DNA of 26,580 nt from NCBI GenBank assembly GCA_048885865.1, contig JBHLLF010000035.1, positions 1 to 26,580 of the forward strand. The letters are read 5' to 3'. Positions 22,557-26,580 of this stretch are shown here, piece after piece. The DNA comes from Candidatus Hermodarchaeota archaeon. Lineage in GTDB: Archaea > Asgardarchaeota > Thorarchaeia > Thorarchaeales > Thorarchaeaceae. How positions within the stretch are numbered: the first letter of the stretch is position 1; every line of letters begins with the position of its first letter. The notes beneath the pieces are model-generated. The model ran no database searches and had not been told where the DNA came from. It worked only from the letters and a program-made list of their open reading frames with translations. Made by a program: the position numbers and the translations under genes.

Positions 22557-22919
22557 TCAGCTGACCATTGCCATCAAAGCTCGTTTGAGAGCCATTCTAA
22601 GGAGTCCCATGGACTCGCGAGCTCCTTCTCCTGCAATTCCAGCAAGAACAACCTTTACGTCGCCTAGAATCACAATGTAGCCATTGTCAGCTGCGACTGA
22701 TACCTCTTTCAATCCCCCCTTGTCGAGACCACTGGATAGTTGCGAGGAGTTTCCAGCAATCTTGACTGCGAGGTTTGCGACATCCGAATGTTTGATGCCC
22801 CCACTGATAGTATGACCAAAAATCACCTTCCCCTTGGCATCGCATACTACTATGCCCTCTAGGTTCTCATTGGCCGCCATTGTATCGGCAATCACTTGTT
22901 TTACCTTTTCTTCATCCAC
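22557..22919 (-). CDS. Roadblock/LC7 domain protein
   Basis: 120 aa: helix, EGIVVCDAKG, helix, GGLKEVSV...GYIVI, C-terminal MGLLRMALKR helix, which is the roadblock fold pattern. Confidence 0.8.
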   Translation of the reverse strand: MDEEKVKQVIADTMAANENLEGIVVCDAKGKVIFGHTISGGIKHSDVANLAVKIAGNSSQLSSGLDKGGLKEVSVAADNGYIVILGDVKVVLAGIAGEGARESMGLLRMALKRALMAMVS

Positions 22920-23057
22920 TTTGACATACTCTCCGTGGGTACTGCCTCTCTGATTTGGTGCTATTCTTCTAAAAACCGTTTCTCCTATAAATGGGAGTAT
23001 TCTTTTGACTACCTTCTGGAGAAAAAAAGATGAGGATGCGAGGACAATATCTATGAT

Positions 23058-23252
23058 ATGGATGAGGTTGAGATTTGCAATTTTACGAAGTATCTGTTGA
23101 TACTAGAAATCCTGCTCTTTATACCGGGAGCGGTCATTGTGACAAACATGCACCCTCTATGGATGCAACAAATGGTCTATACTCTTTTCCTGAGTATTAT
23201 TGTCACAGGTGTCGTCTATGCGTTGGTATCCAGAAGAATCGAGAGGTACTAA
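23058..23252 (+). CDS. Small two-TM membrane protein (64 aa)
   Basis: Two hydrophobic helices and a basic C-terminus (SRRIERY). GAGGA upstream; lies directly before the Sec23/24-like gene. Confidence 0.55.
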   Translation: MDEVEICNFTKYLLILEILLFIPGAVIVTNMHPLWMQQMVYTLFLSIIVTGVVYALVSRRIERY

Positions 23253-23355
23253 TCAGATTCAAACCACTGGAATTAAGGATTGGTGGATGATTTTCATAGC
23301 TTAGGTTAAATACGCAAATGTGAAGCTAGGTCCAAGACTTTTGGAGTCGAATTTT

Positions 23356-24981
23356 ATGCCTATGCTGAGAACTACTTCGGAGGCTTTTCCTTCATCAAAG
23401 GATGTACTGAAAGACCTCCCATACGTCTTGCGAGTCGAATTTGGAGACTTGGCACGAGACGTTACTAAGATTGTTGGCAAGCCAATTGCTTGCCATAAAT
23501 GCAATGGCTTCCTTCTCAGTGTAGATCAGATTCTAGAGGATGACAAGGTCGGAAAGCACTTTGTCTGTCCCTTCTGTGGTACACTGAATGTTATTGAAGG
23601 AGAGATCGTTGTCGCAGGCGACGATACAGACTTCGTTGTGAAGCCACCACAAGACATAGAGACCGGTACTGATACAATATCAACAGGCGGCCGGTCTTTC
23701 TTGGCGTTGATAGACGTTTCTGGGTCCATGGCTGGTGAGAACCTGGCTGCAGTAAAGCGCAGTCTAAACACATCAATTGACAGTCTGGCAGCCAACACTC
23801 CAGACACAATGTTTGGTCTGATTGAGTTTGAGAGTTCTGTAATCTGTAGAAATCTGGAGACCGGGGCGCCCATCGAACTCCCAAGAGAGTCCTTTCAAAG
23901 TCTGGACTCAATCATGGACTCGACAAAACGCTTGTTAGACAAAATCAAGATGGTCAAGGTCGGTGACAAGTCATCAGACCTGAAGAATCACGTTGCAGCT
24001 CTGCGAGACCAAGGCGGAACTGCGCTGGGACCAGCTGTGGGTATGGCCTACACCATAGCCAAACACCGAGATGTTGGTCGAATTGTCCTTCTTACTGATG
24101 GACTTGCAAACGAGGGAATTGGCGCCCTTGAGGGATACCAGGTCACACCCGCGAACAAATACTATGAGGACCTCGGTGATGAGTTCAGAAAGATTGGAGC
24201 CGCCTTCGATGTCGTAGGCATCGCATCAGGTGGAGCCATGGAGCTCAAGACACTGGGTCTGTTACCTGAAGCTACCGGGGGCACTATGTACTATGTGACT
24301 CCCAATGAACTGGATAGAAGCCTCTCAGAGCTTGCAGGAGCAACCCTTCTAGGCCGTGACGTAGAGGTCAAACTCATCACACCTGAGGGTGTCAAGCTCA
24401 AAGATGCATCAGGAGCATCCCGTGCAGTTCTTGATGAGCTCAAGAAGAAAGGCGGCGGAAAGATTGGAGTTGTTGGTGAGGACCATGAGCTATACTTCGA
24501 GGTAGAGCCTGAGAAGAAGATCAAGGGTGAAGAAGTCCCGATTCAGGTACAGGTTTCCTACACCGACAATGAGGGCGCGAGAAGGGTCCGAGCAGTGACA
24601 ACCAAGCTCAAGGTCTCTGAGAAAGAAGATGAGATCATGAAGACTCTCGACCCAACTGTTGGTGCGACCTTCGTCACTCAAAAAGCTGGTGAGGATGCAG
24701 TAAGAGGCGACCGCAAGAAGGGCAAGGAGAGACTTGCCTCATTCAGGACCGCTATGAAGGCTCGCGCTAAGGCCGCGCCCAAGCCAGTCAAGGCAATGCT
24801 CGATAAAGCCGATGATGTCCTTGAGAGTGAGGAAGAAGAGCTTGAGCGTCAGGAAGCACGAATGATGGAGGCTCCCGCTGGAGGTGCTGCACCATCTGCA
24901 GCCGCTGACATGACCGCAGTCGAGAACCTTGCTCAAATGAAGCGCAGCTCCAAGAGAATGTTTGAGGACGACGAAGAATAA
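23356..24981 (+). CDS. Sec23/Sec24-like protein (Zn finger + vWA trunk + beta-sandwich + helical)
   Basis: PIACHKCNGFL...FVCPFCGTLN (Sec23/24-type Zn finger); FLALIDVSGSM, TALGPAV, GRIVLLTDGLANEGIGAL, LPEATGG (vWA trunk); IQVQVSYTDNEGARRVRAVT (Sec23/24 beta-sandwich end). Probable start ATG 23356, with GGAG and TTAAATA upstream. Confidence 0.82.
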   Translation: MPMLRTTSEAFPSSKDVLKDLPYVLRVEFGDLARDVTKIVGKPIACHKCNGFLLSVDQILEDDKVGKHFVCPFCGTLNVIEGEIVVAGDDTDFVVKPPQDIETGTDTISTGGRSFLALIDVSGSMAGENLAAVKRSLNTSIDSLAANTPDTMFGLIEFESSVICRNLETGAPIELPRESFQSLDSIMDSTKRLLDKIKMVKVGDKSSDLKNHVAALRDQGGTALGPAVGMAYTIAKHRDVGRIVLLTDGLANEGIGALEGYQVTPANKYYEDLGDEFRKIGAAFDVVGIASGGAMELKTLGLLPEATGGTMYYVTPNELDRSLSELAGATLLGRDVEVKLITPEGVKLKDASGASRAVLDELKKKGGGKIGVVGEDHELYFEVEPEKKIKGEEVPIQVQVSYTDNEGARRVRAVTTKLKVSEKEDEIMKTLDPTVGATFVTQKAGEDAVRGDRKKGKERLASFRTAMKARAKAAPKPVKAMLDKADDVLESEEEELERQEARMMEAPAGGAAPSAAADMTAVENLAQMKRSSKRMFEDDEE

Positions 24982-24990
24982 ACGATAACA

Positions 24991-25031
24991 GAGTGACGTT
25001 GCAGCGAGCAGCGTCGCTCAACCTCTTTTTT
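24991..25031 (+). terminator. Stem-loop plus T-tract after the Sec23/24-like gene
   Basis: GAGTGACGTTGC-agcga-GCAGCGTCGCTC forms a 12-bp stem (2 G-U), followed by aacctcTTTTTT. Confidence 0.65.
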
Positions 25032-25174
25032 CCATCATATGTGTCTGATTGACCCAAGTTTCAAAATGCGCAAACGGGCTCTCTTACCATAATAATGTCA
25101 TCATAACTGCTAAATACCCAACTGCGGCGTTAGGATTTGTCAAATGGACAATTGATAGCAGCGGAGATTCTACT

Positions 25175-25471
25175 TTGATAAGTCAAGAGCGACTCAACAG
25201 CATCCTCCAACAACTCAAGGCCCAAGACGGAGTCCGTGGGGTCGTGGTCACCACCATGGAAGGTCTTCCTCTGAGTAGTGACTTGGATGCAGATACAACC
25301 GAAAATGTCGCTGCAATCATCACCTCTCTTGTAGGAAAGGCACTGGACACGGTGCGCCTCCTACGCGAGGGATCATTGTCCTTCCTTACCTTGGACACAA
25401 CACAAGGTCAAATAAACATCGCACCCGATGAAAAAGAGGGCCTGATATTAGTGGTCCTCAAGAAGAACTAG
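25175..25471 (+). CDS. Roadblock/LC7 domain protein (short, LC7/LAMTOR-like)
   Basis: GVRGVVVTTMEGLPLSS...ENVAAI...LSFLTLDT...LILVVL. Probable start TTG 25175 with GGAGA upstream; the ORF-track extension to 25049 looks non-coding. Confidence 0.88.
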   Translation: MISQERLNSILQQLKAQDGVRGVVVTTMEGLPLSSDLDADTTENVAAIITSLVGKALDTVRLLREGSLSFLTLDTTQGQINIAPDEKEGLILVVLKKN

Positions 25472-25490
25472 TATGTATGGGGCTATATCC

Positions 25491-25961
25491 ATGAGCGATC
25501 CGAAAGCGTTTGACAGAATCCTCACGGACATCATCCGTCAAGAGAAGGGAATCCGCAAGGTCATCCTTGTAGATAAGACAGGTTTGACCATTGCTAACGT
25601 GAGCAAGCTGTCATATTATCCAGTGGACGTCGACAGTATCGGCGCAATTGCGTCTGCGGTCTTTTGCGCCTCAGAGGAGCAAGGGAAGAATCTGCAGATT
25701 GGCGAGCTTGAGATCGTCACGAGCGAGTTTAGTGAAGGCAAGATATTCGCATCTGCGTGCGGAAAGGGTGTGCTGTGCGTTGTGTCTGATGCCGACGTTA
25801 ACATAGGCATGATACGTCTTGTCATGAAGAAGCAGGGTGTACAGCTCGCAGACGAGCTTGACAAGTTCCTGGCAGTGGAGCCATTAGCTCCCAGCGGCAA
25901 GGACAAGGAGCTGGATGAGGAGGACCTCAAGTCCGCCCTCGCAGAGCTTGAGAGGGTCTGA
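25491..25961 (+). CDS. Roadblock/LC7 domain protein (MglB-like) with acidic C-terminal helix
   Basis: VILVDKTGLTI, IGAIASAVF, GELEIVTSEFSEGKI, NIGMIRL, then an extension ending DEEDLKSALAELERV. Start ATG 25491 (or 25473). Confidence 0.88.
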   Translation: MSDPKAFDRILTDIIRQEKGIRKVILVDKTGLTIANVSKLSYYPVDVDSIGAIASAVFCASEEQGKNLQIGELEIVTSEFSEGKIFASACGKGVLCVVSDADVNIGMIRLVMKKQGVQLADELDKFLAVEPLAPSGKDKELDEEDLKSALAELERV

Positions 25962-25983
25962 CCGCTGCGAGGCGGTTGACCTT
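25953..25983 (+). other. GNRA-tetraloop hairpin overlapping the roadblock stop codon
   Basis: AGGGTC-T-GACCGCT-GCGA-GGCGGTT-GACCTT, about 13 bp including G-U pairs, with a GCGA loop. Confidence 0.5.
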
Positions 25984-26010
25984 GTACGCTCTACAGCCCC
26001 AATTGTGCCA

Positions 26011-26024
26011 CAAACCCTTTTATG
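26011..26024 (+). promoter_or_regulatory. Putative BRE/TATA promoter for the GTPase gene
   Basis: CAAACCCTTTTATG resembles an archaeal BRE+TATA, about 95 nt upstream of the proposed start. Confidence 0.4.
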
Positions 26025-26116
26025 AGACCACACTTTTGGGCTTATCAGCCCCCCGAGCAGGGCTTCTATTTGAGGCCAGAACGAGTACAGGCAGTGACAC
26101 AGTGAGGTGAACAGCG

Positions 26117-26580
26117 ATTCGTAAAGACGACAAAGGCCGCATACATCTCAAATTGGTCTTCTACGGACCAAGCCTGGGAGGCAAAACAACAGCTTTGCGT
26201 TGGTTATATGGCAAAGTTGAGGGCCTCCAGAAAGGAGAGTTCACTGCAATCGAGGATGAAACCAACCGTACTCTGTTCTTTGACTATGTTCCAATGAGTG
26301 CCGGAGGTCGAGTGCTATTCGATGTATTTACAGTCGCTGGTCAGAAGCGTCACCGGCACCAAAGAAAAGTAGTGCTTCAGGGCACTGATGGCATATTGTT
26401 TGTCGCTGACTCATCTCCAGATCAGAGAGATGAGAACACAGAGAGCTTTGAGGAGCTCAAGCTCTTCCTGGGAGATGCTCTGGGGCGCGAAATTCCAATT
26501 GTGGTCATGCTAAACAAGCGAGACCTACCTAATAGAATGTCTCGAGATGAGATGCTAGACCTTCTCGGTCTTGGAGGCAA
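26117..26580 (+). CDS. MglA-family small GTPase, truncated at the window end
   Basis: Manual translation IRKDDKGRIHLKLVFYGPSLGGKTT...DETNRTLFFDY...VFTVAGQ...VLQGTDGILFVADS...VVMLNKRDLP. G1, switch-I RTLFFD, G3 TVxGQ and G4 NKRD match MglA-type GTPases. Confidence 0.9.
   Translation, partial: MRKDDKGRIHLKLVFYGPSLGGKTTALRWLYGKVEGLQKGEFTAIEDETNRTLFFDYVPMSAGGRVLFDVFTVAGQKRHRHQRKVVLQGTDGILFVADSSPDQRDENTESFEELKLFLGDALGREIPIVVMLNKRDLPNRMSRDEMLDLLGLGG

Follow-up and report, generated by a model that had tools for sequence, protein, structure and literature searches.

In the MglA–MglB polarity switch, known from Myxococcus xanthus and Thermus thermophilus, Roadblock dimers of MglB are the GTPase-activating proteins (GAPs) of MglA, and a further Roadblock protein, MglC, has an accessory role. 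In the eukaryotic COPII coat, the gelsolin domain of Sec23 carries the arginine finger that provides GAP activity towards Sar1. Asgard archaea are already known to encode Sec23-like proteins, which have all of the Sec23 domains except gelsolin and for which Foldseek returns Sec23/24; in yeast, three of these proteins co-precipitated weakly with an Asgard Arf irrespective of nucleotide state, and the same study reports that no Asgard protein functions as Sec12 (Nat Commun 2025, PMC11914678). Here we consider a locus from a member of the Thorarchaeota at which a Sec23/24-like gene lies next to an MglA-family GTPase gene and several Roadblock genes. It occupies the end of a contig of 26,580 nucleotides from a Candidatus Hermodarchaeota archaeon (GenBank assembly GCA_048885865.1, contig JBHLLF010000035.1), the whole of which is termed the window below, and in the initial annotation it was put forward as a prokaryotic polarity switch wired to a proto-COPII component. 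Our analysis indicates that it is probably an ancient cluster of one MglA-family GTPase and four Roadblock proteins, in which an already known Sec23/24-like gene has become lodged, and not a proto-COPII machine.

The key evidence comes from the distribution of the two components, which was followed by profile searches for the Sec23/24-like family and for the GTPase orthologue in 400 genomes of the phylum (genomes are numbered from G000, that of the window, and families from f1, the Thorarchaeota, to which the window belongs). All 16 Thorarchaeota genera sampled share the gene order SMC and RoblA (both on the minus strand), Sec23/24-like gene, RoblB, RoblC, GTPase, RoblD and UppS, where RoblA to RoblD denote the four Roadblock genes. 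The Sec23/24-like family itself is present in 147 of the 400 genomes, across 12 families. Its linkage to the GTPase is conserved in other Thorarchaeota but fails in the other Asgard classes, as neither the MglA orthologue nor the Roadblock set is found beside the Sec23/24-like gene at any of 33 loci from the ten families that carry this gene elsewhere (f2, f9, f12, f20, f21, f24, f25, f26, f27 and f32). No paper on a linkage between Sec23/24-like genes and an MglA/Roadblock cluster was found in a literature search.

The cluster likewise occurs on its own. RoblB, RoblC, the GTPase and RoblD are found together without the Sec23/24-like gene in eight families other than f1, namely f2 (G025), f4 (G027), f7 (G148 and G030), f8 (G031), f12 (G035 and G139), f13 (G036), f15 (G044) and f21 (G149), and parts of the cluster are present in f16, f17, f18 and f19. 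This Sec23/24-free form is usually accompanied by RoblA and UppS and often by SMC; RoblA orthologues were detected beside it in f2, f4, f8, f12, f15 and f21, in a position equivalent to that in f1. Genomes from f2, f12, f20 and f21 carry both the cluster and a Sec23/24-like gene, on different contigs, and in the closed genome of G149 the two are separated by approximately 860 kb. Orthologues of the GTPase were found in 330 of the 400 genomes, with roughly 57–67% identity across classes, and are near-universal in families that gave no Sec23/24-like match (3/3 genomes in f13, 4/4 in f15, 3/3 in f17, 10/12 in f14, 21/22 in f18, 5/5 in f7 and 4/4 in f3), which argues against the Sec23/24-like protein as an effector of this GTPase. 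In each family examined the GTPase has Roadblock genes beside it, with the sole exception of f20, in which no Roadblock gene was detected there. Within Thorarchaeota, the flanking SMC and UppS genes are retained as well as the Sec23/24-like gene, so that the synteny is not specific to the pairing of the Sec23/24-like gene with the GTPase.

These distributions are consistent with two units of different age lying side by side. The older would be an Asgard-wide switch composed of one MglA-family GTPase with RoblA, the RoblB–RoblC tandem and RoblD, flanked by SMC and UppS. The younger would be the Sec23/24-like gene, inserted once, at the base of the Thorarchaeota, into the spacer between the divergent RoblA and RoblB genes and retained from then on as part of the local synteny. 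In a tree of Sec23/24-like proteins, built by a quick search and not the careful finished one, sequences follow the families, and those of Thorarchaeota group in a single clade (support 100) with the unlinked f2 sequences as sister (98), as expected if the gene entered the RoblA–RoblB spacer once, at the base of f1. Because the insertion is confined to Thorarchaeota, the position of the gene in this locus is no evidence of a primitive vesicle coat.

Three Thorarchaeota genomes (G019, G018 and G392) have broken the arrangement, with the cluster intact in each. The Sec23/24-like gene of G019 has been relocated, leaving the old locus intact, and its product nests inside the Thorarchaeota clade; the gene now lies at L043:5992-7635, beside a glycosyltransferase gene and a histidine-phosphatase-like gene. 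In G018, a deletion of 1.6 kb relative to G396, a member of the same genus, has left the last C-terminal codons of the gene, about 28 in number (L127:6458-6547), and the remnant is followed by an unrelated stretch of approximately 360 bp; no other Sec23/24-like copy was found in this genome, which is 96% complete. The genome of G392 (98% complete) gave no Sec23/24-like match, although the cluster is present. A separate irregularity occurs in the one-contig assembly of G004, where a second, partial copy of the locus (L047, G004:C1:925703-938245) lies 330 kb from the full one and consists of RoblA, half of SMC and the first 180 codons (N-terminal) of the Sec23/24-like gene, as a result of either duplication or misassembly.

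The initial gene assignments (Sec23/24-like protein, MglA-type GTPase and Roadblock proteins) are upheld by Pfam, profile and structure matches. The Sec23/24-like protein has the domain order of Sec23 and Sec24, with a Cys4 zinc finger, a vWA-like trunk containing a complete metal ion-dependent adhesion site (MIDAS) and a beta-sandwich, followed by a helical C-terminal region and an acidic tail. In Pfam, the trunk is matched by Sec23_trunk at 41.3 bits (cut-off 27) and the beta-sandwich by Sec23_BS at 33.5 bits, exactly at the cut-off; the match to zf-Sec23_Sec24 is weak (E = 0.003), yet the four cysteines (C46, C49, C71 and C74) show no variation among 30 sequences that represent 11 families, nor do the MIDAS residues D120, S122, S124, T222 and D248, the last of which is absent from the aligned yeast Sec24. 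A structure model of the protein (pLDDT 87.8, pTM 0.88) has Sec23 and Sec24 as its best Foldseek matches (E = 1.6e-30, TM-score 0.73), and profile comparison places the family nearer to Sec24 (4e-18) than to Sec23 (3e-6).

The published Asgard Sec23-like proteins belong to the same family as the window protein; that study dealt neither with MglA and the Roadblock cluster nor with the gene neighbourhood, and its binding assays used an Asgard Arf and not the MglA-type GTPase (PMC11914678). In comparison with eukaryotic Sec24 and Sec23, zinc finger, vWA trunk, beta-sandwich and helices occur in identical order, but the Asgard protein is shorter (541 versus approximately 770–930 residues), has a complete MIDAS and stops at residue 541, once the helical region is complete; Pfam gives no match to a gelsolin domain, and hence there is no arginine finger of the Sec23 type. 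Eukaryotes have a Sec23/Sec24 pair, whereas most of the 147 positive Asgard genomes gave a single match, the double matches mostly reflecting split contigs or fragments. No fused form, for example with a GTPase domain, was seen among candidates of 948–2705 residues, although this is weak evidence only. A prediction of the complex between the Sec23/24-like protein and the MglA-type GTPase with GTP and Mg scored 0.00, below the mark, and is evidence neither for nor against an interaction. The most likely role of the protein, a putative one, is that of an adaptor for proteins or peptides that depends on a bound metal, and its partners are not defined by the locus.

The GTPase is a member of the MglA family. 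A profile of 20 orthologues recovers MglA structures from Thermus and Myxococcus with E = 6e-48, compared with 8.5e-15 for the best Arf, and is nearer to MglA than to any other group of the Ras superfamily. The motifs RTLFFD (switch I), TVAGQ (G3) and NKRDLP align to MglA hallmarks, the first two being invariant in the 20 orthologues and aligning to RTLFFDF and YTVPGQ of MglA, respectively. The protein accordingly displays both features that mark the MglA family, the replacement of Asp by Thr in G3 (TxxGQ) and a switch-I arginine of its own. Its identity is 92–100% within Thorarchaeota and about 60% between classes, irrespective of the presence of a Sec23/24-like gene. The reading frame starts 16 codons ahead of the P-loop glycine, at a position where other genera of the Thorarchaeota have ATG, GTG or TTG. 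The window and several of its close relatives instead have ATT there (26117), and G015 and G347 have ATA, which points to use of a non-canonical initiation codon; a TTG at 26153 was considered as the start and dropped in favour of 26117, the position conserved in orthologues.

The resemblance to the MglA–MglB switch, in its form with MglC, extends beyond the shared switch-I arginine, G3 threonine and NKRD motif to the presence of adjacent Roadblock genes, one of which, RoblC, is weakly MglB-like. The Asgard locus differs in having four distinct Roadblock paralogues, in a fixed order across Asgard classes, as opposed to one MglB. Moreover, the beta2–beta3 hairpin of the Asgard GTPase is four residues shorter, no RomR or RomX was identified, and no motility context is known. 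The initial description as a triple-roadblock locus was right as to the presence of Roadblock genes and wrong as to their number, the fourth, RoblD, being on the adjoining contig C50.

The four Roadblock proteins are unequally well matched by existing models. RoblA scores 19.2 bits with Pfam Robl_LC7, under the cut-off of 23, and 1e-44 with a Roadblock hidden Markov model built here. RoblB reaches 54.6 bits with Robl_LC7, and the orthologue of RoblD in G015 reaches 57.5 bits. RoblC scores 39 bits with the same model and 6e-6 with the NCBIfam MglB model, under the cut-off of the latter, has weak matches in the PDB to MglB and LAMTOR2 and is 85–92% identical across Thorarchaeota genera; as judged from sequence, it is the most MglB-like of the four. 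The start position of RoblB is conserved, and most relatives have stop codons a short way upstream of it. An extended RoblB reading frame of 140 residues, from 25049, was dropped in favour of the TTG at 25175, the start conserved in relatives; all Thorarchaeota genomes checked, and f2 as well, have TTG at this position, where other families have ATG.

The proposal that the Roadblock proteins regulate the MglA-type GTPase is plausible, as their linkage is conserved in at least nine Asgard families, and from family membership and linkage a GAP action on the GTPase is a putative one. By analogy with MglA and MglB, a GTPase with its own switch-I arginine and with Thr for Asp in G3 would be served by Roadblock dimers acting as a GAP, as a platform or as both. 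The likeliest GAP would be a heterodimer of RoblB and RoblC, because RoblC has an MglB-like C-terminal extension; the pairing itself is suggested by protein family, gene order and the 1-nt spacing of the two genes. RoblA and RoblD may act as accessory regulators.

Several observations nevertheless weigh against the view that the Sec23/24-like gene is simply carried along at this locus. Its adjacency to the cluster has been kept across 16 Thorarchaeota genera while the identity of its product falls to approximately 52%. The junction between the gene and RoblB has never been found to be broken by an inserted gene, whereas the spacer between RoblC and the GTPase holds inserts of 0.5–3.9 kb in about five Thorarchaeota genomes (1–3.9 kb at loci L036, L037, L098 and L099). 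Finally, the branch leading to the relocated G019 copy is twice as long as that of its sister (0.76 versus 0.38), and this faster evolution suggests that position could matter. (Fragments resembling a GTPase gene lie on the opposite strand within the RoblC–GTPase insert of L099.) Taken with an orientation that matches that of RoblB–RoblC, and with the fact that eukaryotic Sec23 is a GTPase effector (PMC11914678), these points would suit a reading in which, in Thorarchaeota only, the inserted protein came to serve the MglA/Roadblock switch as effector or adaptor, giving a lineage-specific module resembling a GTPase–coat pair. We consider this distinctly unlikely. The linkage is missing in ten other families; conservation of the GTPase is alike with and without the Sec23/24-like gene, with no visible adaptation to a new partner; and in three Thorarchaeota genomes the gene is gone or has been moved although the cluster is still there. 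The protein has no gelsolin domain and is nearer to Sec24, which does not contact Sar1, and Asgard Sec23-like proteins bound Asgard Arf weakly in yeast, regardless of nucleotide state (PMC11914678). In the genome of the window, a hairpin and T-run also intervene between the gene and RoblB. The effector role first proposed for the protein draws on adjacency alone, which is confined to Thorarchaeota and broken in three genomes. Nor is a more general affinity, whereby the Sec23/24-like protein would pair with a different small GTPase in each lineage (MglA-type in Thorarchaeota, Ras-like, Rab-like or others elsewhere), anything but very improbable, even though clustering of neighbouring open reading frames (ORFs) shows small GTPases to be the only neighbour family common to at least three families around the Sec23/24-like gene, and although a GTPase or Roadblock gene lies within two genes of it in four contexts outside Thorarchaeota, a further point against the passenger view. 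These four are f9 genus g17, where six genomes encode a Ras-like GTPase upstream, on the strand of the Sec23/24-like gene, with a peroxiredoxin-like ORF intervening; f9 genus g69 (L090), with a GTPase gene directly upstream; f24 (L091), with a Roadblock gene directly upstream; and one f26 genome, in which a Roadblock-domain protein is encoded one gene away. They are of different types, their GTPases belonging to unrelated kinds, and their number is near the chance expectation: Ras-family and Roadblock matches amount to 53–126 per genome, or some 1.4–2.4% of genes on a rough estimate of one gene per kb, so that about 20 independent contexts would yield approximately one direct neighbour and two within two genes, against two and four observed. 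The GTPase near the gene in f20 is Rab-like, 4 kb off and on the opposite strand, and no such GTPase or Roadblock neighbour was seen in the other f9 genera or in f12, f21, f25, f27 and f32.

A quite different possibility is that the protein is a regulator of the ArnB type, in which a module of zinc finger, vWA domain and MIDAS binds phosphorylated or acidic partners and has no role in membrane traffic. The ArnA–ArnB complex of Sulfolobus (PDB 8s05; PMC12852372) resembles the Sec23/24-like protein in its vWA domain, beta-sandwich and helical core, a core described as common to Sec23/24 (PMC12852372), and is recovered by Foldseek at E = 3e-16, alongside a bacterial vWA protein (4fx5) at 2e-17. 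The full MIDAS, invariant in 30 sequences, whereas the final Asp is missing from the yeast Sec24 aligned with them, would also suit such a role. However, structural similarity to ArnAB is much weaker than that to Sec23 and Sec24, which are by far the better matches in both structure and sequence (TM-score 0.73 versus 0.45). The zinc finger that is fused in the Sec23/24-like protein is supplied by the partner in ArnA–ArnB, and neither the FHA partner nor a kinase has a counterpart here, as no gene for an FHA-domain protein or a kinase was seen adjacent to the Sec23/24-like gene in any lineage. An ArnB-type regulator is on balance unlikely, and an older switch in which a known Sec23/24-like gene has lodged accounts best for the locus.

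Two of the neighbouring GTPases in f9 have features of their own. In G225 of genus g17 (L085:4853-5491), the Ras-like GTPase gene is directly preceded by a gene for an Rce1-like CAAX prenyl endopeptidase; the genus as a whole keeps the two genes paired, and the GTPase has no CAAX end. The GTPase of G193 in genus g69 (L090:6201-6869) is 223 residues long and 30% identical to that of the window; it has TPGL as its G3 motif, with Thr in place of Asp and Leu in place of the catalytic Gln, and carries a C-terminal extension of 60 residues.

All of the genes named in the initial annotation are present, as judged from ORF listing and from Pfam and NCBIfam scans (Table 1). The window is the entire contig C35, and contig C50 begins with the same 77 bases with which C35 ends. 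The GTPase gene runs off the window end, C50 carrying 58 further codons that end at base 177, and the continuous order GTPase–RoblD–UppS is also seen in close relatives. The start MPMLRT assigned to the Sec23/24-like protein is conserved among its relatives.

Table 1. Features of the MglA/Roadblock locus and the Sec23/24-like gene, in window coordinates unless contig C50 is given
Feature	Position	Strand	Description
RoblA	22557..22919	-	Roadblock/LC7 protein, 120 aa; divergent from rest of cluster
2-TM ORF	23058..23252	+	64 aa, two hydrophobic segments
Sec23/24-like gene	23356..24981	+	541 aa; ORF open from 23320, conserved start MPMLRT at 23356
Stem-loop and T-run	24991..25030	+	Directly 3' of Sec23/24-like stop codon
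RoblB	25175..25471	+	Short Roadblock, 98 aa, TTG start; ORF open from 25049
RoblC	25473..25961	+	Roadblock, 162 aa, C-terminal extension; begins 1 nt past RoblB stop codon
MglA-family GTPase	26117..26580	+	187 aa; first 154 codons in window, remainder C50:1-177
RoblD	C50:186-566		Fourth Roadblock, 3' of GTPase
UppS	C50:647-1414		3' of RoblD

Two smaller elements of the locus can be dealt with briefly. The ORF with two potential transmembrane segments (2-TM ORF), once considered as a possible membrane anchor for the module, lies on a segment of approximately 280 bp (about 23007-23285) that is found only in this genome and in G015, where tblastn gave its only match (87.5% identity); the flanks of the segment are contiguous in G010 and G008. 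This refutes a role as conserved anchor, and the ORF is probably not a gene of the module. The segment is single-copy in the genome and is an indel. The terminator-like hairpin noted 3' of the Sec23/24-like gene is real, in that terminator scanning and folding identify 12 pairs at 24991-25019 followed by six T, with a fold energy of −21.9 kcal/mol (z = −2.86). It is not a conserved feature, as T-runs of at least five occur in the spacer between the Sec23/24-like gene and RoblB in 5 of 17 measurable f1 loci. A scan of the locus for bacterial sigma-70 promoters was set aside as inapplicable to archaea.

Collectively, the evidence is that of a lineage-specific gene insertion, and it does not justify citing the locus as a proto-COPII module. 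If it were true that the Sec23/24-like protein works with the GTPase, this would be the first prokaryotic pairing of a GTPase with a coat protein and would bear on the origin of COPII. That a polarity-type GTPase recruits a Sec24-like adaptor to membranes in Thorarchaeota, as an independent experiment in GTPase–coat coupling, is however a slim prospect. The Thorarchaeota offer natural controls in this respect, as their genomes include some with the Sec23/24-like gene in the locus and others in which it has been relocated or deleted. What stands out at the locus is a sharply defined, highly conserved cluster of MglA and four Roadblock genes, of which no description was found in the literature searched and which may be a core piece of regulatory machinery not described before, present in nearly all of the Asgard families searched.

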